64,000 nucleotides of DNA from an uncultured bacterium (GTDB lineage Bacteria > Desulfobacterota > Binatia > HRBIN30 > CADEER01), in the NCBI GenBank assembly GCA_965651925.1, contig CBFGUK010000003.1, forward strand, positions 6,801-70,800, in the 5' to 3' direction. Of this stretch, positions 2,016-57,859 are shown piece after piece; the stretch's first letter is position 1; the number at the start of each line of letters is the position of its first letter. The position numbers and the translations under genes were made by a program. Below the pieces are notes generated by a model that saw nothing but the letters and a program-made list of their open reading frames with translations, did not search any database and was not told the origin of the DNA.

Positions 2016-3371
2016 TCAGTGCACATGCGGCACCGCCTCCCGGGGCGCCGGTGGCGCCGCGTCCGGGTCGCCGGCCGGCGGCGCCGGCATCGGTTCGCCG
2101 GCCGTGCCGAGGAACCGCGCCACCGCCTCGCGGAAGTTGCTTTCTGCATCGAGCAGGAACTGCCCGCTGGTGACCACCGTGTCGCCCGCCGCGAGCCCGG
2201 CGCGGATCTCGACCAGGCCGTCGTCGCCGGTCGGGCCGACGGTGACGCGCCGCGGCGCGAAGTGTCCCTCGGCGCGGGCGATGAAGACGACCTGCTCGGT
2301 GCCGGTGTCGATCACCGCCTCGCGCGGTGCGAGCAGCACGCCGGCGATCGGCGCGGCGTCGATCACCACCGTCGCATACATGCCCTGCAGCAGCCGCTCG
2401 CCGGGATTCGCCACCTCGATGCGCGCCAGCGCCGTGCGCGTCGTCGGATCGAGATGCGGGTGGACGAACGTCACGCGTCCGGCGAGCGGCTCGCCGGGCA
2501 GTGAGGCGAGGTGCACGGTCGCCGGCCGGCCGACGCCGACCAGCGCCAGGTCCTGCTCGAAGATGCGCGCGTCGATCCACATCGTGCCGCGGTCCGACAG
2601 CCGCAGGACGCGTTCGCCGGCCTGCACGGCGTCGCCGGCGACGACCAGCTTCTCGGTGACGTGGCCGGTGATCGGGCTGGTGAACGTCACCGTTGCCGGC
2701 GGGCGATCGAGCCGCGCCAGCCGGTCGACCTGGGCGCGCGGCAGGCCGAGCAGCTCGAGCTTCTGTCGCCCGGTCTCGTACAGCAGCGCGGCGGCGCTGC
2801 CCGGGGCGGCCTCGCGCGGCAGCGCCGCGCGCGCGCCGATCAGCTCGCCGATCGCGACCTGCAGCTCGGGGCTGTAGAGCTCGAACAGCGGCTCCCCGGC
2901 GCGCACCGGCATGCCCTCGACGTCGGCGAACAGTCGCTCGATCCAGCCCGAGACGCGCAGCGCGATGTCGTGCTGGCTCGGCTCGGGCTCGCGCACGACC
3001 GCCACCGCGCGCACCGAGCGGCGCAGGGTGCCGCGGCGCACCGCCGCCGTGCGCACGCCCATGTTCTGCACGACGGCGGGATCGATGGTCACCGCCGGGC
3101 CGGCGTCATCTGCCTCGCGTGCCTCGCCGTTGCCGGACGGGCCGCCGTTGGTGACCAGCGGCGTCAGCTCCATGCCGCAGATCGGGCAGGTGCCCGGCCG
3201 ATCGCGGATCACCTGCGGGTGCATGCCGCAGGTGTAGAGCTGCTTCGGCTGCGCGTGCCCGGCATGCGGATCGCCGGGCTGCGCGTGCAGCATCGGCGCG
3301 CCGAGGAGCAGCGCGGCGGCGAACACCAGCATCCGCGCCGGTCCCCGGCGCGCGCGATCGTGCGCCGTCAT
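2016..3371 (-). CDS. Efflux RND periplasmic adaptor (membrane fusion protein, CusB/CzcB-like) with an N-terminal CxxxH...CPxCGM heavy-metal-binding domain.
   Basis: Internal start of the track ORF 2016..4232 at MTAHDRARRG (ATG at 3371-3369). The upstream part of the ORF is Arg-rich junk. Signal/TM segment MLVFAAALLLGAPMLHA, then YTCGMHPQVIRDRPGTCPICGMELTP, then the HlyD-like barrel-sandwich/beta-barrel body. The ATGA junction overlaps the stop of the upstream TolC-like gene. Confidence 0.85.
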   Translation of the reverse strand: MTAHDRARRGPARMLVFAAALLLGAPMLHAQPGDPHAGHAQPKQLYTCGMHPQVIRDRPGTCPICGMELTPLVTNGGPSGNGEAREADDAGPAVTIDPAVVQNMGVRTAAVRRGTLRRSVRAVAVVREPEPSQHDIALRVSGWIERLFADVEGMPVRAGEPLFELYSPELQVAIGELIGARAALPREAAPGSAAALLYETGRQKLELLGLPRAQVDRLARLDRPPATVTFTSPITGHVTEKLVVAGDAVQAGERVLRLSDRGTMWIDARIFEQDLALVGVGRPATVHLASLPGEPLAGRVTFVHPHLDPTTRTALARIEVANPGERLLQGMYATVVIDAAPIAGVLLAPREAVIDTGTEQVVFIARAEGHFAPRRVTVGPTGDDGLVEIRAGLAAGDTVVTSGQFLLDAESNFREAVARFLGTAGEPMPAPPAGDPDAAPPAPREAVPHVH

Positions 3372-4771
3372 GACGGCATCTCCTCGCGCATCGCGGCGGC
3401 GGCGAGCTGCTCTGCATCGATGCCCGCCAGCTCCTCGAGCTCGGCGACGCGACGCTCGCGGGCGATGCGCGTCTCGGCGAGCGTCAGCTCGAGATCGAGC
3501 AGCGTGCGGCGGGCGGCGATCAGGGCCGCCAGGTCGCCGGCACCGGTGGTGTACAGCCGCTCGGCGGCCTCGGCGGCCTGGTTCGCCGCCGGGACGACGT
3601 GGCGGTCGAGCAGCGTCCGCTGGCGCTCGCTGCTGCGCAGGGCGAGCAGCGCGGCGACGAACGCGGCGTCGCGCTCGTGTGCCGCCTGGCGCAGTACGGC
3701 TTCGCTGGCACGCAGCGTGGCGCGCGCCTCGCGGATGCCGGCGCGGATCTGCGGCAGCGTGCTCGGCAGCGTGATCGCCGCCCCGACGACCTGCGCCATG
3801 CTGCCTTCGAGGCCGACGAACGGGTTGATGTCGGGGAAGTACTGCTGCCGCGCGAGACTGAGCGCATCCTCGCGTCCCGCGACGTCGCGTGCGAGCGCCG
3901 CGAGGGTCGGATTGGCGCGCGTGCCGAGCGCCAGCAGGCGCGCGTCGTCGGCCGGCAGCGGTCGCGGCTCGGGCAGATCGGGCTCGGTGAGCGGCGCGTC
4001 GGCGGGGCGGGCGAGGAGGGCGTTCAGCCGCGCACGGACCTGCGGCAGCTCGTCGCGCAGGTTGATCAGGTCGTGATGGCCGTGCTGGCGCTCGACCTCG
4101 GCGGCGAGGAGCTCCTGCTGCGGGCCGCCGCCGCGCACACGGGCGGCCGCGGCGTCGGCGGCGAGATCGAGCAGTGCCAGCTGCGCGCGCTGGATGCGGA
4201 CGCGCGCGGCGAGGAGTGCGTAATCGAGCCACGCGTCGAGCACGCGGCGCTGCAGCGCGAACTTCGTCGCCGCAAAGCGCTGGCCGGCGCTGCGCGCCCC
4301 TTCGGTGGCGACGCGCCCGGCGGTCAGCACCTTGGTCGGGAACGCGAGGTTCTCCATCGGGTCGAACCCGACGGTGAGCGCCGTGCGATCCCAGCCGGTC
4401 AGGTTGGCGCCGGAGAAGAGATAGTCGAACCCGAGCGACACGTTGGTGTTCGGGTACCCTGCGGCGATGTCGATGCGCTCGATGGCCGCCAGCCAGGTGA
4501 AGTAGCTCGCCTCGAGCTCGCCGTTGTGCCGCAGCGCGTAGCGCAGCAGCCCGCGCCAGTCGGCGTCGACCGGCAGCTCGTCCTCGAGGCGCTCGGGCGC
4601 GGGCACGGCATAGACCGCGCCGGCGGCCTCGGCGCGCGCGCGCTCGTCGGCCGCCTCACGCGGGGCCAGCGAGCAGCCGGCGAGCGCGATCGCGAGGACC
4701 GCGACGGGGGGGAATTTCAGTGCGGGGCCGGCGTGTCGCACACGCCGGCACGGGACAGTGACAACGGACAT
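3368..4771 (-). CDS. TolC-family outer membrane efflux lipoprotein (CusC/CzcC-like).
   Basis: 467 aa with a lipoprotein signal (AIALAGCSLAP) and alpha-helical coiled-coil repeats typical of outer membrane factors. The stop overlaps the adaptor start (ATGA). Confidence 0.85.
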   Translation of the reverse strand: MSVVTVPCRRVRHAGPALKFPPVAVLAIALAGCSLAPREAADERARAEAAGAVYAVPAPERLEDELPVDADWRGLLRYALRHNGELEASYFTWLAAIERIDIAAGYPNTNVSLGFDYLFSGANLTGWDRTALTVGFDPMENLAFPTKVLTAGRVATEGARSAGQRFAATKFALQRRVLDAWLDYALLAARVRIQRAQLALLDLAADAAAARVRGGGPQQELLAAEVERQHGHHDLINLRDELPQVRARLNALLARPADAPLTEPDLPEPRPLPADDARLLALGTRANPTLAALARDVAGREDALSLARQQYFPDINPFVGLEGSMAQVVGAAITLPSTLPQIRAGIREARATLRASEAVLRQAAHERDAAFVAALLALRSSERQRTLLDRHVVPAANQAAEAAERLYTTGAGDLAALIAARRTLLDLELTLAETRIARERRVAELEELAGIDAEQLAAAAMREEMPS

Positions 4772-7384: not shown

Positions 7385-9130
7385 TCAGCCCGTGAGTCGC
7401 GGACGGTCGGCGGGTGCGTGCAGTTGCAACCCGGGTGGCGCGGCACGGCGGCGGTGCACGGCCCAGCGGCCGATCACGGTTTCGATCACGTACTCGCGCG
7501 CCAGCAGGTCGCGCAGCCAGGGAAAGTCGGGCGCGAACGCCGGGCCGTCCCACACCTGCAGGGAGTCGCCGGTGGCGGTGACGATCACCGGCGGGCGGAC
7601 GGCGGCGATGTCGGCGATGAGCTCGGCGAGATGGCGGCGCTGCAGGGCCGTCGGCGGCCGGCTGCAGGCGCCGACCAGCCGGTAGTCGTGCGGATCGTCC
7701 GGCTCGACGCACCACACCGCGGTGCTCTGCAGGAAACGGCTCGGCGCCGGGCGGCCGGCGGCGTAGTGGACGGCCGCCACCGGACCCCAGAGCAGTACCG
7801 GCGCGCCGTCGGGTGTGTGCGTGCGCAGATAGCGCGCCACCGCGGCCTGCTCGTCGCTGTCGGCGACCAGCAGCGCGTAGGGCGGCTGCTCCTGCAGCGC
7901 GATGCGCAGGTTGGCCGGCAGGCTACGGGCGGCGTCGACGATCGGCCGCATGGTGAGCACCGGGATGCCGACGGTGAGCACGGCGATCACGGCGAGCGCC
8001 GCGATCCGGCCGCCAGCTCCTGACCACTGCGCGAGCGGCGCGAGCACGCGGCTCCAGCCGATCCCGGCCAGGGCCGCCGCACAGGCCAGCACCGGCCAGT
8101 ACTGATAGCGATAGCTCTTCGCCTCGAGCAGGCGCACGGCGATGCAGGCGAGCAGCGCGCCGAGCAGCCAGGCGCGCAGCATCGGCGCGCCGGCGGCGGT
8201 GCGGCGGTCGCGATCGGACAGCGCGACCTGCCAGCCGGCGAGCGCGAGCAGCAGGCCGACCCACAGGACCTGCGGTGTGTCGAGCAGCAGCTTGAGCAGG
8301 ACCGCGCCGGGCGGCTTGCGGTCGATCTGCGCGTACACGGTGACGATGTAGAGGAACGTATCGCGCAGGATCGCGCCGAACCCGGCGGCGGTGAAGACCG
8401 CAAGGAAGAGCAGCGTCGGCAGCGCGCTCACGACGCCGAGCAGCAGCGCCGCGCGCAGCCCGTCGCCGGTGGTCCGGCCGCGCCATCCCTGCCACAGCAG
8501 CGCACCCATCGCGGCCGCCACGAGCACCGCGAAGCTCGGTCGGAGCAGGCAGGCGACGCCGAGCGCGATCCCGGCGGCGGCGAGCGCGCGGCGTGTCGGC
8601 GGCGCGCCGCGGCCGGCGAGGGCGAGCACGGCGCCGAGCAGCAGCGGCACGGCGAAGCCATCGCGCTGCGCGGTGTGGTAGTAGCCGGCGCTGACGTAGG
8701 CGACGGCATAGAGCAGGGCGGCGATCAGCCCGGCAGTGGGACCGGCGACCCGGCGTGCCGCGGTGTAGAGCAGGCCCGCCGCCGCCAGCTGCACGACCCC
8801 GTCGACGAGCCGCAACGCCAGCGGGCCGCTGCCGAGCAGCAACGCGGGCACGTGGACGAGCAGGAACCCCGGTGCCTGCATGTCCCAGCTCTCGACGTAG
8901 GGCCACCGTCCCTGCAGGGTCGTCGAGGCGATGTAGTGCAGCAGTCCCTGGTCGTACCCGAACCCGAAACCGAGCGTCGGCAGCAGCACCAGCGCCGCGC
9001 CGAGCAGCGCGACCAGCAGCCCCGTCGCCGGCGACAGCTCCGTCACGGCGCGTTCGGCGCGATGCGGGTCAGGTGGTGTGCAGCCGTCGGTCACGTGCGC
9101 CCCGGACCTCCCGCTCGCGTCAACGAGCAA
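7385..9130 (-). CDS. Polytopic membrane glycosyltransferase, GT39/GT83 (ArnT/PMT)-like, putative.
   Basis: 581 aa. About 12 predicted TM helices over the first ~400 aa, then a ~180-aa soluble C-terminal domain. Start is uncertain: ATG at 9130, or the internal GTG near VTELSPATG. Confidence 0.5.
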
Positions 9131-40390: not shown

Positions 40391-41101
40391 TCACGACATC
40401 AGCAGATGCTGAATGATGCCGTACGCGATGGTGACGGCGACGAGCGCGACGATGCGGGCCTGCGGGAGGTCGAGGGCGACGGCGAGCGCGCCGGTGAAGC
40501 AGCCGACGCCGGCGGCGAACGACAGCGGCGTGACGTATGGATTCCACGCGCTGCCGACCATGGCGAGCAGCATGGCGCCCCAGAAGAGCGCGAGGCCGGC
40601 GAGGGCGCCGGCACACCAGACGTGCGTGGCGGTCAGCGCGGCGGCGATCGGCAGGCTGACGAGCAGCACGGTCATCAGCGGGCGCAGGAGCGCCGGCGGA
40701 CGATCGCCGAGCCGGCCGAAGCGCGCGCTGATGTCGGCATCGGCGCCATATCCTCCGGCGCGCCCGTCGGCGCCATGGCTCAGCACGTCGGCCCAGTCGG
40801 GGCCGGTGGGCGCATACACGTACGGATGTCCCCACGGATCGTCGGGCACGTACGGCACGAATTCCGGCGCCAGCACGCGCAGGCCTTCCTGCGCGGTCGG
40901 CATGCGATGATGCTGCCCGCGGTAGCGGTCGAGCGCCGCGGCGAGGTCGCGCGCGCCGGTGACCGCCATGCTGTACGTCCCGGCATCCTGCAGGCTGTCG
41001 TAGAGCGTGGTGGCCGCGCGCGCGAACACGAGCACCAGCAGGGGCGTGACCAGCAGGCCGAGCAGGGCTCCGGCTGCGAAGGCAAGCGGGCGGCGGCGCA
41101 C
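40391..41101 (-). CDS. Membrane protein with a periplasmic type II secretion GspG-like (pseudopilin C-terminal) domain. It lacks a prepilin leader.
   Basis: 236 aa. N-terminal TM helix, then LDRYRGQHHRMPTAQEGLRVLAPEFVPYVPDDPWGHPYVYAPTGPDWADVLSHGADGRAGGYGADADI, matching the T2SS-G motif. Three more TM helices at the C-terminus. Confidence 0.6.
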   Translation of the reverse strand: MRRRPLAFAAGALLGLLVTPLLVLVFARAATTLYDSLQDAGTYSMAVTGARDLAAALDRYRGQHHRMPTAQEGLRVLAPEFVPYVPDDPWGHPYVYAPTGPDWADVLSHGADGRAGGYGADADISARFGRLGDRPPALLRPLMTVLLVSLPIAAALTATHVWCAGALAGLALFWGAMLLAMVGSAWNPYVTPLSFAAGVGCFTGALAVALDLPQARIVALVAVTIAYGIIQHLLMS

Positions 41102-50760: not shown

Positions 50761-51018
50761 GGTTGCCTCCTCCGTTGCGCCTGGGGTTGCAGCTGCGTTG
50801 AGCACGGCACATGCCACGAGTGGTGACGACATTTCGTCGAACGCCCTCGCGGAACGCTGTGCGAAGTGATCGTCGAGGAATCGTCGCAGTGTCGCAGTCC
50901 CGACGGTCCCATTCGCACGGCACATGGCGGATGCGCACCGCCGGCGACGTGGCGCGGGGTGCGCAGGCGCAAGGAGCCGAATTGCCGGCGTTTTGCCGCG
51001 TGCTTCCGGACTGTGCAG

Positions 51019-51047
51019 TTGACCCTATTGCACCCGGCGGGCATAGA
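51019..51047 (+). promoter_or_regulatory. Weak sigma-70-like promoter candidate for the dockerin-like gene.
   Basis: TTGACC (51019-51024), 17-nt spacer, CATAGA. Poor -10 box, very tentative. Confidence 0.15.
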
Positions 51048-51081
51048 TCGGCGGGTTGTGAGCCGGCGGACGATCTGCGCG

Positions 51082-53574
51082 ATGGTGAGCGGACACGGGT
51101 GTGTGCTGCTCGCCGCATTGCTGTTCGCCCTTGCTCCCGTCCGGATGGCGCGCGCCGCGGTGCCGTCGCTGCCGGGCGATGCGGACTGCGACGGCGTGGT
51201 GACCGCCGCCGATTTGTCGCAGATCTGGGCCGAGCTCGCCGACGGTGACGGCTGGCTCGCCGCCGAGGCGGACGGCGGTTCGGTGGTCAGCTGCATCGGC
51301 GCAGACGCCAACCGCGATGGTGCGATCACCGCCGCCGATCTCGCCGGCGTCAGCCTGCGCCTCGGCGGCGGCGTCGCCGCCGCCGGGCCGTTCATCACCT
51401 ACATGGGCATTGCGTCCGCGGATGGCACCACGACGGCGCCGGCGGGCGACGTGCCCGTCCCGGTCTGGCAATCGGTCAGCGGGATCGGATTCCGTGTCGT
51501 CATCGAGGTCGCACCGGGCGACGGCGGTGTGCCGGTCGGACAGACGGTCGTCTCGCCGCGGGTCGACGAAGCGCCTGACCTCCAGGTGCAGGTCTCGCGC
51601 CCGCTCGGCGACGGCAGCCGCAACGTCTGCGGCGAGGGCGGTGTGCCCGGCATCGCGCCGCCGCACTTCGAGCCGCTCGACGCGATCAGCCCCGTGCTCA
51701 ACGATCTCGGCTGCCGCTTCGAGGTCGCATCGAATCCGTTCTCCGCGTGCACCACCGATGCCTTCGGCGCTCACCGCTTCGTCGATCCGCGCACCCGCGT
51801 CCAGTTCTGCCTGTTCGTGTCGACCGTCGAGGCGTTCCCGGACGGCCTGACGCTGGTCACCGCACGCGCGCGCGACACAGCGGGGGTGCCGAGCGCCCCC
51901 GCGCAGCTCCTCGTCCGCGTCGGCACCGAGCCGCTCGTCACCGTGACACCGCGGCCGACGGCCACTGCGACCGCGTCTCCCGACGCCACCGAATCGCCGA
52001 CCGCGACGATGACCGCGCCACCCACGGCACCGCCGCCGACCGCGACCGCCACGAGCGATGCGACCGCCACCCGCAGCGGCTCGCCGACGCCGACGCGCAC
52101 GCCGAGTGTCACGGCGGTGCCGACGCGCACCGGAACGCGCACGCGCACGCCGAGTCCGACGACGAGTCCCACCCGGACGCGCACGTACACACCCGGACCG
52201 AGCCCGACGGCCACCATCACGGGCATCGCGACGTCGACGTCGACGCGGACGGCGACCCGCACCGCGACCCGATCGCCAACGCGCACGCCGACGCGCACCG
52301 GATCGGCGACGCGCACCCTGACCCGTACGCCAGGGCCGAGCAGCACCGCGACCGGTACCGGGACGCCGACGCACACGATCACCCGGACGCGCACCCCGAG
52401 CGCGACCCGCACGCGCACGATCACCGGCACGCGACCGCCGACGGCGACGCCGACACGGACGCGCACGGCCACGAGTACGCGGACGGTGACGCCGACGAGC
52501 CGCTTCAGCCTGACGCCGACCCCGACCCGCACCGCAACGGGAACGGCGACGCGCACCGGGACGCGCACCGCGACGCCGACCGGTACGCTGGTCCGTACCC
52601 CGACACAGACGCCGTCGCGTACCGCCACGCGCACCATCACCCCGACGCGCACGCGCACCGGCACGCCGACCCGCACGATCACCGGCACACGGCCGGCGAC
52701 TGCCACCGTGACCCGGACCCGCACGCTGACGCGCACGCCGACGGCCAGTGTCACGCGGACGGTCACGGTGACCCGCCCGCCGGTGGCCACCGGCACCAGC
52801 ACCCGGACGAGGACGGTCACGCGCACGCGGACGCCCACCCCGACGCCGAGCGTAACGCGCACCGGCACCCAGACCCGCACCGCGACGCGAACCGGAACGG
52901 CCACGCTGTCGCCGACCATCACCCGTACGCCCTCGGTGACGCGCACGGCGACCCAGACCCGCACGCCGACGCCGACAGGGCGTCCCGGCGCGGACATCAG
53001 CTATGCCGGGCTGGCGCGGGCCAGCGACACCGTGATCGCGCCATCCGGCACGACGGCGCAGGGCTGGCCGATCTACGAGCGGCCGTTCGGATTCTCGTTC
53101 TCGCTCGTGATCGAAGCGAAGCCAGGTCCGAGCCGGCGTCCCGTCGGACTGAACGCATTCCGCAGCAGCCTGACGGATCCCGCGTTGCGTCCCGACCTCG
53201 AGATCATCGTCTCGCGGCCGCTCGGCAACGGCAGCCTCGACGTCTGCGACGACATGCTGCCGCTTCTCGGCGGAGTGCCCGCCTCGTCCGGATTCGAGCT
53301 CACCCAGCAGATTTCGAACGCCATCAACGATCTCGCCTGCCGGTTCGTCACCGGAGGCGGAGAGCCCGGCGGCCGTCGCAGCGCCGATGCGTGCACGGTC
53401 TTCGGTGACGGCGAGTACCGGTTCATCGATTCGACGAGCACGGTGCAGTTCTGCGCACTGATTGCCGAGCCCTTCGGGTTCCCACTCGGCGATACGGTCG
53501 TCACCGTCCGTGTCCGCGACTCGACGGGCATGCCGGGGCCGCCGGCGAGCTTCGTCGTGCGCGTGCTGCCCTGA
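51082..53574 (+). CDS. Secreted protein: signal peptide, dockerin-like Ca-binding pair, unnamed 4-Cys domain, ~330-aa (T/R/P/S/A)-rich linker, then a second copy of the same 4-Cys domain.
   Basis: Internal Met [25 protein letters not shown] of the track ORF 50866..53574. Dockerin loops [12 protein letters not shown] and [12 protein letters not shown]. Domain copy 1 (~175-345) and copy 2 (~655-830) align: ...VIE(V/A)xPG...(Q/I)VSRPLG(D/N)GSxxVC...(L/I)NDL(G/A)CRF...AC...FG..(H/Y)RF(V/I)D...VQFC...(V/T)V(T/T)xRxRD(T/S)xG(V/M)P...VRV. The linker is TRTxTPTxT-type low complexity. 830 aa. Confidence 0.7.
51940..52980. repeat. About 1 kb cryptic nucleotide repeat (acgcgcacgccgac-type) encoding the Thr/Arg/Pro-rich linker.
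   Basis: ACSCGBACSCCGACS-like units, imperfect and codon-periodic. Coding low-complexity, not a CRISPR array. Confidence 0.6.
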
Positions 53575-55194: not shown

Positions 55195-55371
55195 ATGGCC
55201 GAGAAGAAGGCAAAGACCGCTCAGAAGGGTCCCGGCGCGGTGATGGTGAAGCACACCTGCCCGAGCTGCGGGGCCGACAGCCGCGTGACCTATTTCACCG
55301 GCTACGGTGCGCAGAAGGGATTCTTCTGGGTGTGCGACAAGAACTGCGGGTACATGGCCCGCACGAAGTGA
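55195..55371 (+). CDS. Small Zn-ribbon protein (58 aa), not in the ORF track because it is under 60 aa.
   Basis: MAEKKAKTAQKGPGAVMVKHTCPSCGADSRVTYFTGYGAQKGFFWVCDKNCGYMARTK: CxxC...CxxxC. Strong SD. GC-rich third positions. Confidence 0.55.
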   Translation: MAEKKAKTAQKGPGAVMVKHTCPSCGADSRVTYFTGYGAQKGFFWVCDKNCGYMARTK

Positions 55372-55400
55372 ACGTACGGTCGAGGACGGGAGCAGGGAGC

Positions 55401-55757
55401 ATGGCCCGCACGACGAGCAAGAAGAGCAAGGGCTCGAGCAAGAAGAGCTACAGCGTGCTCGAGGCGAACGACACGGCGGAAGGCCAGGAAGACAGCGATC
55501 TTCCCAAGGACGAAGCCGGCCGGCGCAAGATCAAGCGTCAGTACGAGACGCTACTCGGCATCCGCATCGAGAAGCTGAAGGGACGCATCCTCAACCGCGA
55601 GCGGATCAACAAGACCATCGAGGGCGTCTACTTCATCTGCGCGGAATGCAAGAAGGTCTGCCACAATATGGACGACGGCCTGGTGGAAGACCCGAACAAC
55701 ACCTACAACCTCTGCGGCCCCTGCGCGAAGGCGAAGGGGAAGGGCAAGGCCGCCTGA
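55401..55757 (+). CDS. Small basic protein (118 aa) with a C-terminal Zn ribbon.
   Basis: Internal Met MARTTSKKSKGSSKK... of the track ORF 55332..55757. C-terminal YFICAECKKVCHN...YNLCGPCAKAKGKGK. Its start shares the 14-mer catggcccgcacga with the 3' end of the preceding mini-gene, in a different frame. Confidence 0.55.
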   Translation: MARTTSKKSKGSSKKSYSVLEANDTAEGQEDSDLPKDEAGRRKIKRQYETLLGIRIEKLKGRILNRERINKTIEGVYFICAECKKVCHNMDDGLVEDPNNTYNLCGPCAKAKGKGKAA

Positions 55758-55774: not shown

Positions 55775-56689
55775 TCAGGCCGGGACGCGGAAGTCGGGTG
55801 GCGCCGGGCTCTCGATCGAGAGCCATCGTCCGTCGGTGGGGTGGCGTATCGCAAGGCGCGCAGCATGCAGCAGCAGCCGCGCGGCCGGTTGCGTGCCGTA
55901 CAGCGGATCGCCCCACACCGGGTGGCCGGCGGCGGCGAGGTGGACGCGGATCTGGTGGCGCACGCCGGAGGGAATCGTCACCTCGAGCAGCGACGCGCGG
56001 CGCCCGACCTCGAGCGGGCGATAGCGCGTCAGCGCCGGACGCGCGTGCCAGTGGACGGCACGGTGCGGATCCGAGCAGACCACCATGCGTCGGGCGCTGC
56101 GCGGGTGGTGCGCGATCGGCTCGTGCCGCTCGCCCGCGGCGGTGACTCGCCCCTCCACCCAGGCGAGGTAGCGCTTGTCGACGCCCTGTTCGGCGAACTG
56201 CCGGCGCAGGTTCAGCCACGCCGCCCGATCGCGTGCGGCGAGCAGGACGCCCGAGGTGCCGGTATCGAGTCGATGGACGAGGCCGGCCTCGAGCGGCGTG
56301 CGTCCCGCGGCGGCCGTCTCCGGTGCCCGCGCGACGAGGAAGTTCGCCGCTGTGCCGCGGTCGGCCGCGTCGCGCGCGACCGCCGGACAGCCGGCCGGCT
56401 TGTCGACGGCGATCAGCGCCGCGTCGACGTACAGCACCGGCAGATCGAGCTCGGCCTCCGGCACGGCCAGCGGAGCGGTGAGCGCCGCTGGATCGATCTC
56501 CACCACGTCACCGGCGTGCAGGAGATCGCCCTTGCGGGCGCGACGTCCGTTGACCTGCACGGCGGCCGCAGCGATGATCGCCATCGCCCGGCGGCGCGAG
56601 GGCACGCCTGTCTGTTCGACGAGGAAACGATCGAGCCGGATGCCCTCGGACGCACAGACGAACTGCGGTGGTGGCGTACGGGTGGACAC
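55775..56689 (-). CDS. RluA-family 23S/tRNA pseudouridine synthase with an N-terminal S4 domain (RluD/RluC-like).
   Basis: GTG start at residue 387 (VSTRTPPPQFV...) of the 690-aa track ORF; the upstream part is antisense to the aminotransferase gene. S4 region IRLDRFLVEQTGVPSRRRAMAII. Catalytic HRLDTGTSGVLLAAR. The start is uncertain by a few codons. Confidence 0.75.
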   Translation of the reverse strand: MSTRTPPPQFVCASEGIRLDRFLVEQTGVPSRRRAMAIIAAAAVQVNGRRARKGDLLHAGDVVEIDPAALTAPLAVPEAELDLPVLYVDAALIAVDKPAGCPAVARDAADRGTAANFLVARAPETAAAGRTPLEAGLVHRLDTGTSGVLLAARDRAAWLNLRRQFAEQGVDKRYLAWVEGRVTAAGERHEPIAHHPRSARRMVVCSDPHRAVHWHARPALTRYRPLEVGRRASLLEVTIPSGVRHQIRVHLAAAGHPVWGDPLYGTQPAARLLLHAARLAIRHPTDGRWLSIESPAPPDFRVPA

Positions 56690-56716
56690 GACGCGGCATC
56701 CTAGGGAGCGAGCAGG

Positions 56717-57859
56717 GTGACGACAATCGACTGGCAGTACTGGCGCGCGGAGTTCCCGTCCGCCGCCGGGCAGGTGCACATGAACCACGCCGGGCTGGCG
56801 CCGCTCTCCCGCCGCGTGGCCGCGGAAATCCGCGCCTTCGCCGATGAGGCCGAGCAGTTCCTGCCGGGCAGCTACGCGGGCTGGACGGGGCGCGTGACCG
56901 CCGCTCGCGCGGCGATCGCGCGCCTGATCGGGGCGCAGGCGGACGAGATCGCGATCGTGCCGAACACGGCACACGGGCTGTCGCTGGTCGCCGCCGGATT
57001 GCCGTGGCAGGCGGGCGACAACGTCGTCGCGATCGACGGTGAGTATCCGTCGAACATCTATCCGTGGCTCGGCCTGCGGCGGCAGGGCGTCGAAACGCGC
57101 CTGGTGACACGACCGCGCGACGGCCGCTTCGGTGTCGATGAAGTCGCGGCGCTCGTCGATGCGCGGACACGCGTGGTCACGGTCAGCGCCGTCGACTGGC
57201 AGTCGGGGTTCCGCTGCGACCTCGCGGCGCTCGGCGAGTTCTGTGCGCGGCGCGATGTGCTGCTGGTGGTCGACGGCATCCAGGCCGTCGGCGCGCTGCA
57301 GATCGACGTGACGCGCAGCGGCATCGGCTGCCTCGCCGTCGGTGGTCACAAGTGGCTGCTCGCACCCGAGGGCTGCGGCTTCCTGTTCGTCGCCCGGCAC
57401 GTGCTCGATCGCCTGACGCCGGTGCTGCTCGGCTGGAACAGCGTCGCGGACCCCGACACCTATCTGCCGTACCACTTCGACCTGCGCCGCGAGGCGGAAA
57501 AGTTCGAGCCCGGGACGCAGATGCATCTCGGCGTCCGCGCCCTCGGCGCCGCCGTCGATCTGCTGCTCGCCGTCGGTCCCGCGGCGATCGAGGCGCGCGT
57601 GCTGGCGACGACCGACGCGCTCGCGGAGGGGCTGCGCGGGATCGGGGCGACGATCCTCAGCTCCCGACGTCCTGCCGATCGGTCGGGCATTCTCACGTTC
57701 GAGCTCGGCGATACGGCCGCGTTGCACGCAACGCTGGTTCGGCACGGCATCGCCTGCCGGCCCCGCCTCGGCGGTGTCCGGCTCGCGCCGCACTTCTACA
57801 ACGATGCCAGCGATGTCGCGCGCGTCATCGCGGCCGTTCGCGAGCACGCCTCACGTTGA
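56717..57859 (+). CDS. Aminotransferase class V-fold PLP-dependent enzyme (cysteine desulfurase/SufS-like or isopenicillin-N-epimerase-like).
   Basis: 380 aa. GTG start. PLP lysine in VGGHKWLLAPEG. Fold type I aspartate-aminotransferase superfamily. Confidence 0.8.
   Translation: MTTIDWQYWRAEFPSAAGQVHMNHAGLAPLSRRVAAEIRAFADEAEQFLPGSYAGWTGRVTAARAAIARLIGAQADEIAIVPNTAHGLSLVAAGLPWQAGDNVVAIDGEYPSNIYPWLGLRRQGVETRLVTRPRDGRFGVDEVAALVDARTRVVTVSAVDWQSGFRCDLAALGEFCARRDVLLVVDGIQAVGALQIDVTRSGIGCLAVGGHKWLLAPEGCGFLFVARHVLDRLTPVLLGWNSVADPDTYLPYHFDLRREAEKFEPGTQMHLGVRALGAAVDLLLAVGPAAIEARVLATTDALAEGLRGIGATILSSRRPADRSGILTFELGDTAALHATLVRHGIACRPRLGGVRLAPHFYNDASDVARVIAAVREHASR

Follow-up and report, generated by a model that had tools for sequence, protein, structure and literature searches.

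Type I dockerins of cellulosomes (PF00404), such as those of C. thermocellum GH9 (4fl4) and Xyn10B (1ohz_B) and of C. cellulolyticum Cel5A (2vn6_B), are built from a duplicated loop-helix segment of about 22 residues with a GDxNxDGxV signature and internal two-fold symmetry. Dockerin-like modules are also said to occur on secreted proteins of Bacteria and Archaea that have no cellulosome. Scaffoldins such as CipA combine repeated beta-sandwich modules, PT-type linkers and one dockerin, and Ig-like or E-set surface domains (PKD, HYR, Big, PorU 6za2, Y_Y_Y sensors 3v9f) are found as tandem copies on secreted proteins. Pro/Thr-rich linkers are known from secreted glycoside hydrolases and from surface proteins of Chloroflexi and Actinobacteria. 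In this work we focused on a gene of an uncultured member of the Binatia, whose predicted product carries a dockerin-type module and two copies of a domain with four conserved cysteines (4-Cys domain). It lies on a 64,000-nt stretch of contig CBFGUK010000003.1 (assembly GCA_965651925.1, positions 6,801 to 70,800 of the forward strand), hereafter the window. Binatia occur worldwide in soils and sediments, and a life as methylotrophs and alkane degraders has been predicted for them (PMC8262859).

On balance, we lean towards a product without catalytic function that depends on Ca and on disulfides, is secreted, and serves this Binatia (Binatota) bacterium as a binding or scaffold protein at its cell surface or in its matrix. 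As a whole it is a modular secreted protein of a known kind, the new parts being the Binatia-restricted domain family and a probably stapled form of the dockerin. The modular protein would be exported by the Sec route to the cell surface or the extracellular matrix, where the four cysteines of each domain would have formed two disulfides after export. The dockerin would bind Ca2+ and tether the protein to a receptor on the cell or to another matrix protein, and the linker between the domain copies would serve as a long, extended, possibly O-glycosylated spacer that sets the conserved C-terminal domain at a distance from the anchor point. The Ig-like domains may bind a ligand (glycan, protein or surface), and an XRE-family regulator encoded next to the gene may control its expression.

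The architecture given in the preliminary description, i.e. a signal peptide, a dockerin-type module, one domain, a long Thr/Arg/Pro linker and a second copy of the domain, was recovered in full and in one reading frame (Table 1), in DNA that has a GC content of 70-75% throughout the window. Its residue numbers for the two domains (~175-345 and ~655-830) had been counted from an upstream GTG at 50866, and counting from the ATG at 51082 places the domains at 102-286 and 633-830. The protein has 830 aa from this ATG or 838 aa from the GTG at 51058, and the stop codon occupies positions 53572-53574. GTG 51058 appears to be an equally or more likely start, because this codon and the residues it adds, of the form (W/R)R-T-V/I-C, are kept in the orthologs, and because a conserved TTGACC-N17-CATAGA element precedes it. 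It would extend the n-region of the signal peptide by eight residues (MSRRTICA). A Tat signal in this extension (SRRTICA) was dismissed, the orthologs having WR instead of RR. The N-terminus has the features of a Sec-type signal peptide, with a hydrophobic core followed by an ARA/A cleavage site and the mature start AVPSLPGD, and in each dockerin-bearing relative the N-terminus is likewise hydrophobic and ends in AxA directly ahead of (S/P)(L/I)PGD. At the cleavage site of the window protein (...VRMARA/AVPSL) no lipobox of the form [LVI][ASTVI][GAS]C was found, position +1 not being a Cys.

Orthologs of the gene were found in more than 15 syntenic loci; an exact-sequence look-up in public assemblies returned no record of the window protein itself. 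The gene is under purifying selection: compared with four orthologs, the ratio of nonsynonymous to synonymous substitution rates (dN/dS) was 0.15-0.36 for copy 2, 0.20-0.39 for copy 1 and 0.34-0.44 for the linker, with dS near saturation. Identity to the closest ortholog (L005) was 79% for copy 2, 64% for copy 1, 58% for the dockerin and 59% for the linker, against a baseline of 42% obtained with shuffled linkers.

The dockerin-type module stands at the N-terminus of the mature protein. Its two EF-hand-type Ca loops, D33-D44 and D75-D86, each lead into a helix, and no other motif of this kind occurs in any frame of the window. The PF00404 (Dockerin_1) profile scored 24.2 bits with the whole protein, 25.9 with its N-terminal part and 29.8 with the isolated module, above the gathering cutoff of 22.9. 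Forty homologous modules were taken from related loci, and 38 of them matched PF00404 (best E=3e-9). A local hidden Markov model (HMM) profile built from the 40 modules matched solved dockerins in the PDB, namely 4fl4_A (3.2e-8), 2vn6_B (3e-6), 1daq_A (1.1e-5), 2ccl_B and 1ohz_B (2.2e-4), and solved cellulosomal dockerins ranked mostly ahead of calmodulin-type EF-hand proteins. Across the 40 modules the Ca ligands (D or N at loop positions 1, 3, 5 and 12) show no or almost no variation. In the window protein TAAD occupies loop positions 9-12 of both repeats, an internal two-fold symmetry typical of dockerins. The preliminary description was thus right about a dockerin-like segment, and by every sequence criterion tested the module belongs solidly to the dockerin type I family. 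A homolog search with the module alone gave no matches, the 77-aa query being short for a collection of 5.8 billion sequences.

Unlike the cellulosomal dockerins, which it resembles at the profile level, this module is N-terminal on a non-enzymatic protein and comes from a non-cellulolytic, diderm, uncultured lineage. It also differs from them by an invariant pair of cysteines of its own, C36 (loop 1, position 4) and C71 (four residues ahead of loop 2), probably linked as a disulfide staple, and by an 11-residue Asp/Gly-rich insert between the repeats that is specific to the ortholog group of the window gene. With the non-cellulosomal dockerin-like modules it shares its presence on a secreted protein, but it differs from them in being almost exclusively fused to one lineage-restricted domain, in a sample biased towards that domain. 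In about 1.3 Mb of Binatia loci chosen for containing the 4-Cys domain, 48 of the 50 open reading frames (ORFs) with a dockerin of this type also carry the domain. A second dockerin-like variant, CxGDCNxDGxVxVxELIxxVNxALxGC, with a Cys at both ends, was seen in P0232, P0198, P0182, P0279 and P0284; it is C-terminal in PPC-PPC proteins, with or without an ELWxxDGT-repeat region, and N-terminal in some single-copy members, so that at least two types of dockerin-like module are in use in the family.

The kinship of the module with cellulosomal type I dockerins, including its internal symmetry, would also fit a classical dockerin-cohesin pair, in which a true cohesin scaffold is encoded elsewhere in the genome and the 4-Cys domains are cargo or binding modules. 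We consider this unlikely. No glycoside hydrolase or other enzyme with a dockerin of the window type was present in the 1.3 Mb of related loci, and none of the 31 window proteins scanned is a cohesin, in agreement with the preliminary description. The latter had further taken the dockerin to imply a cohesin-bearing partner, and this step does not hold: dockerin-like modules are reportedly common in organisms without cohesins, the non-cellulosomal ones often having no cohesin partner, and such a partner is therefore an assumption.

The two copies of the 4-Cys domain are 39% identical over 192 columns (E=3e-36). In an alignment of 75 sequences, C90, C121, C139 and C159 (copy 2 numbering), NDxxCRF and QFC are invariant, and the collinear motif string and the four shared cysteines listed in the preliminary description were all correct. 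The polar residues E46, D91, N117, D118, R122, Q157, R178, D181 and R195 are invariant as well. Searches of Pfam, NCBIfam and the PDB with single sequences and with the 75-sequence profile gave no significant match, so that the claim of an unrecognised domain stands for curated families. A profile match to LpqN (E=0.16) was discarded as noise. Matches to HYR stayed below threshold (6 of the 75 members, best E=0.018), as did Big_13 (2 of 75), and no HYR, PKD or Big family scored above its Pfam gathering score. The HYR matches of P0121 and P0124 span just the last ~25 profile positions, and the HYR and Big_13 echoes correspond to the last two strands of the domain, a VTVRVxDxxGxxG...VxV pair that resembles the C-terminal part of HYR/PKD-type domains.

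An AlphaFold2 (AF2) model of the domain, based on the 75-sequence alignment, reached a predicted local distance difference test (pLDDT) value of 95.8 and a predicted template modelling score (pTM) of 0.92. Strands were modelled at residues 5-14, 18-20, 31-36, 41-49, 74-78, 156-162, 171-181 and 190-197. Between the fifth and sixth of them an insert of ~75 residues (~79-155) with one helix (110-120) holds C90, C121 and C139, and C159 lies in the next strand. A two-sheet Greek-key sandwich in the model can be superposed on known Ig-like domains over ~100 residues. From this model we assign the domain with high confidence to the Ig-like (E-set) beta-sandwiches with a Cys-rich insert, the insert presumably being stabilised by disulfides. 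Foldseek found no match in the PDB at TM>0.4, no close PDB fold and no structural match for the insert. Like PKD, HYR or Big domains, the 4-Cys domain occurs in tandem copies on secreted proteins, but with ~190 aa it is twice the usual size of Ig-like domains, and its insert with a helix and three invariant cysteines sets it apart. The description of the domain as unrecognised thus survives in part: no sequence family claims it, but its modelled fold is Ig-like and it is not unique to the window protein.

A word-indexed search returned 180 relatives of the 4-Cys domain, all annotated as hypothetical and none with a Pfam domain; where a source was named, which was rarely the case, it was Candidatus Binatia or bacterium HR30. 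When 1.84 billion cluster representatives were searched exhaustively with a profile, 897 matches were obtained at E<=1e-3, of which 401 at E<=1e-30, with one to five domain copies per protein. In a scan of one genome per GTDB species, 200 loci were recovered with several paralogs per genome. Most were labelled Candidatus Binatia and the remainder 'uncultured bacterium' or older or odd names (Deltaproteobacteria, Myxococcales, Margulisiibacteriota). Labels of the Deltaproteobacteria, Myxococcota and Desulfobacterota type match the classification of Binatota sequences before this group was named (PMC8262859). Judged from these searches, the 4-Cys domain is a large paralogous family found almost only in metagenome-assembled genomes of Candidatus Binatia.

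Scanning the domain HMM over all fetched loci separated two main architectures. Class A proteins have a signal peptide, an N-terminal dockerin and 2-5 domain copies. Class B proteins lack the dockerin and consist of a signal peptide, a Pro/Thr spacer and 1-2 copies, most with a lipobox (LAISLAAC, IVGC). Other partners of the domain are PPC domains, the ELWxxDGT-repeat region and the C-terminal dockerin-like variant. The modules combined with it (dockerin-like, PPC and the ELWxxDGT-repeat region) are non-catalytic and extracellular, its other companions being lipoprotein signal peptides and Pro/Thr linkers, and none of the 20 larger members scanned had a catalytic Pfam domain. At the C-terminus of P0107, a motif that contains Cys precedes a hydrophobic helix and a tail rich in Arg (GCAMGSG...LLAFLALALVRWGARRGVRTRRRC); their resemblance to a MYXO-CTERM/PEP-CTERM-type sorting signal hints at a third mode of anchoring.

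Class A and class B genes adjoin in about 15 loci. In some of them the gene for a dockerin protein with three copies precedes that for a lipoprotein with two (L032, L043, L055, L059, L067, L054), and in others the first gene encodes a dockerin-less protein with one copy and, as a rule, a lipobox, and the second a dockerin protein with two copies (L046, L048, L038, L064, L075, L078, L070, L047, L060); the latter pairs are flanked by genes for a HEAT-repeat protein, an AMIN-like lipoprotein and Mrp/ApbC. Only one gene of the family is present in the window. These arrangements recall scaffoldins, with repeated beta-sandwich modules, Pro/Thr linkers, one dockerin and, in some loci, anchored relatives nearby. 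They raise the possibility that the 4-Cys domain is itself the receptor of the Cys-stapled dockerin, i.e. an analogue of cohesin in a Ca-dependent, self-assembling surface network specific to Binatia, in which multi-copy dockerin proteins would form scaffoldin-like chains and the dockerin-less, mostly lipoprotein paralogs would be the membrane anchors. The frequent fusion of dockerin and domain (48/50) and the lack of a classical cohesin among the scanned window proteins would agree with such a network. We nevertheless judge it quite unlikely, as the argument is drawn from layout and co-occurrence. The loci had been selected for the domain, which biases the 48/50 count, and tandem duplication with domain shuffling explains adjacency and co-occurrence equally well. 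No lipoprotein paralog adjoins the window gene. An AF2 model of the dockerin with copy 1 (residues 25-290), run to seek packing between them, had a pTM of 0.71 with a low-confidence dockerin part (helices 42-54 and 84-94 at pLDDT 50-68) and indicated no confident packing, which counts neither for nor against the network. Unlike in scaffoldins, the repeated module matches cohesin neither by sequence profile nor by fold, no cohesin being among the top Foldseek matches, and neither a carbohydrate-binding module nor dockerin-bearing enzymes were seen.

The better-scoring Foldseek matches of the 4-Cys domain include RhoGDI and NPC2 (TMq 0.34-0.39, probability up to 0.98, E~1e-2), which are weak. 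Together with the sub-threshold match to LpqN, a mycobacterial lipid-binding lipoprotein, with the many lipoprotein paralogs and with the prediction that Binatota degrade alkanes and C1 compounds (PMC8262859), they could suggest a sandwich that encloses a hydrophobic ligand as in ML/NPC2 or RhoGDI proteins and serves in the surface capture or shuttling of hydrophobic substrates. This is improbable: such matches (E>=1e-3, TM<0.4) are typical of any Ig-like sandwich, that to LpqN lacks significance, Gly, Pro, Cys, Phe and charged residues make up most of the conserved positions with no evident cavity signature, and no locus showed linkage to alkane or C1 genes.

The linker is a degenerate (Thr-X)n sequence. 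It is indeed rich in Thr, Arg and Pro as the preliminary description had it, but it is longer than the ~330 residues given there (~346 aa, or 354 aa between the HMM envelopes). It has a net charge of about +46 and is almost free of acidic residues; its 287-residue core (residues 346-632) contains 122 Thr, 46 Arg, 35 Pro and 0 acidic residues. The autocorrelation of Thr is +0.65 at lag 2 and -0.66 at lag 1 and lasts to lag 8, and the DNA consists of degenerate repeats of 6, 12, 24 and 42 nt. Within the ortholog group the linker varies from 321 to 798 aa and keeps its composition (35-43% Thr, 7-15% Arg, 13-20% Pro and acidic residues at 1-3%), with a net charge between +28 and +55; linkers of other paralog types have 20-210 aa. 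A role as a spacer fits these data, since length class and composition are conserved and the sequence is not. The PT linkers of secreted glycoside hydrolases and surface proteins are likewise Thr/Pro-rich spacers of variable length with potential for O-glycosylation, but that of the window group differs from them by its exceptional length, its strict Thr-X alternation, its Arg content and its near lack of acidic residues.

That the frame is an artefact, i.e. open by chance in 72% GC DNA or joining two genes through a low-complexity stretch whose real gene would be the antisense ORF (Table 1), is effectively refuted: the antisense ORF does have a third-position GC content (GC3) of 0.90 and is annotated by gene callers in public assemblies, leaving C-terminal 'proteins' of ~190 aa, but dockerin, copy 1, linker and copy 2 share one unbroken frame not only in the window but also in over 40 independent loci, whose linkers differ so much in length, the linker dN/dS quoted above holds in the plus frame, the antisense product is pure VRVGV low complexity, and the C-terminal copies called alone lack a start or signal peptide context. 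The high GC3 arises because the antisense ORF mirrors the ACG, CGC and CCG codons of the linker. The ORF was rejected as a gene in view of the one-frame orthologs, the linker dN/dS and its low-complexity product. Where public assemblies call the shadow ORF as a gene, the true gene is cut down to its C-terminal domain. Examples are P0001 (187 aa), beside a 299-aa minus-strand call in L082 (1-897, -), and P0036 (176 aa), on a contig where L012 (8147-10591) has the full two-copy ORF; many ~190-aa database entries of the 4-Cys family are probably truncations of this kind. For annotation, the lesson is that gene callers can be misled by the antisense shadow ORF of high GC3 that a (Thr-X)n linker creates.

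For the secreted binding or scaffold protein that we favour, the modules and their conservation are observed, and several points weigh against it or limit it. Its localisation, ligand, receptor and regulation are inferred, the signal peptide was called by eye, the dockerin part of the AF2 model is of low confidence, and the genomic context gives no functional hint beyond the XRE regulator, the other neighbours being housekeeping genes. The organism is a diderm with a secretion route, because the window encodes a TolC-type OEP and a pseudopilin of the type II secretion system (T2SS). Sec export by itself takes a diderm protein only as far as the periplasm, where the lipoprotein paralogs could also reside, and the term 'extracellular' draws on linker length and on analogy. 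The main argument for it is the linker: at ~0.3 nm per residue its contour length could reach ~100 nm, which exceeds the periplasm. If the description holds, it adds an uncatalogued extracellular family with about 900 cluster representatives at 50% identity, which merits a Pfam/InterPro entry, and a disulfide-stapled variant of the dockerin that is fused to this family in nearly all cases examined. To our knowledge nothing is known of the cell-surface biology of Binatia, and the 4-Cys family offers a concrete handle on it. No long-standing question would be opened or closed by these results, unless the 4-Cys domain does act as an analogue of cohesin.

Table 1. Features of the dockerin gene, its surroundings and selected genes of the window
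Feature	Residues	Position	Strand	Remarks
TolC-like OEP		3368-4771	-	
PMT_2-family glycosyltransferase		7385-9130	-	42 kb from the dockerin gene
T2SS pseudopilin G		40391-41101	-	
Upstream neighbour, predicted secreted protein	1241 aa	46684..50409	+	Pfam: VWA, DUF4215, right-handed beta-helix
Divergent XRE-family HTH regulator	84 aa	50509..50763	-	PF01381 HTH_3, E=7.7e-12; ATG 50763
Shared intergenic region		50764..51057	.	294 bp; conserved blocks in 15 aligned orthologous upstream regions
ORF		50866..53574	+	Open for 902 codons
Promoter-like element		51019..51047	+	TTGACC, 17-nt spacer, CATAGA; 10 nt before GTG 51058; phylogenetic conservation
Coding sequence, dockerin / 2x 4-Cys-domain protein		51058 or 51082..53574	+	Both domains and dockerin in one frame
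Predicted Sec-type signal peptide	1-25 (from ATG)	51082..51156	+	Read from sequence
Dockerin type I-like module	31-94	51172..51363	+	PF00404 match; two EF-hand-type Ca loops
4-Cys domain, copy 1 (predicted Ig-like)	102-286	51385..51939	+	Family HMM 175 bits; AF2 pLDDT ~80-97
Antisense shadow ORF	408 aa	51771..52997	-	VRVGV-type, across the linker; artefact, not a gene
Linker	287-632	51940..52977	+	Degenerate (Thr-X)n, X mostly Arg, Pro, Ala, Ser, Gly
4-Cys domain, copy 2 (predicted Ig-like)	633-830	52978..53571	+	Better conserved copy; reaches the C-terminus

The gene order around the dockerin gene is common to L005-L019 and L034. It comprises genes for a Mur ligase, a PAPS reductase, optionally the VWA/DUF4215/beta-helix protein, and the XRE regulator on the opposite strand, followed after the dockerin gene by a Methyltransf_28 gene, a conserved 141-aa ORF, a pseudouridine synthase, an aminotransferase and a GPAT. 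The XRE gene lies divergently beside the orthologous gene in 20 loci, among them L023, L027, L033, L040, L052 and L074, where the wider context differs. Since the pairing persists in different contexts, it is conserved beyond general synteny. A 138-aa version of the XRE ORF, beginning at 50925, is most likely over-extended, with the start at ATG 50763; AGGAGG-N5-ATG at this start is conserved in the 15 orthologous upstream regions.

The intergenic region shared by the two genes presumably has a regulatory function. Among its conserved blocks are TTGAC and GGCAT-A, which belong to the alignment of the same 15 regions, and a near-palindrome (GACGACATTTCGTCGA) at ~50830; an inverted-repeat scan of the region returned weak repeats only. 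A scan with the sigma-70 consensus found no promoter, the TTGACC-N17-CATAGA element included. The distance of ~10 nt between this element and the GTG suggests a transcript with a very short leader or none. A terminator-like match at 53076 was dismissed, as it lies inside the coding region.

To examine the neighbours of the family, ~1,300 ORFs from 77 loci were clustered. The recurrent ones include genes for the HEAT-repeat protein, the AMIN-like lipoprotein, Mrp/ApbC, an LLM oxidoreductase, a MurC-like ligase, PAPS reductase and GPAT; they were dismissed as functional partners, being housekeeping genes held by synteny, and the XRE regulator alone recurs where the context changes. Around a lipoprotein paralog (P0088) the context was uninformative, a small PKD protein adjoining it among otherwise metabolic genes. 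The predicted secreted protein encoded upstream in the window is composed of a VWA domain, a TxT linker, a DUF4215 Cys-rich repeat (CGDG...CDDGN) and a NosD-like right-handed beta-helix, and its C-terminal region of ~450 aa had no Pfam match. It stands beside the HTH/dockerin pair in 9 orthologous loci; tblastn gave no match for it in L007, L010, L012 and L014, though other window neighbours were matched there.

Downstream, the 141-aa ORF (55332-55757, +) has a Lys/Ser-rich N-terminus and a zinc-ribbon-like C-terminus (CxxC...CxxC). It had no Pfam match, is 90% identical to its counterpart in L005 and was present in 17 loci. The 690-aa ORF that follows (55775-57847, -) is over-extended, most loci matching only its C-terminal ~300 residues, which from their sequence look like a pseudouridine synthase (RluA/RluD-like); its N-terminal half overlaps a class-V aminotransferase gene (56717-57859, +), where its apparent matches fall. 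Farther away, the PMT_2-family protein could be a protein O-glycosyltransferase relevant to Thr-rich linkers. The rest of the window holds housekeeping genes, among them those for UvrA, Mfd, PdxA, ATP sulfurylase, GPAT, UbiA and COX3.

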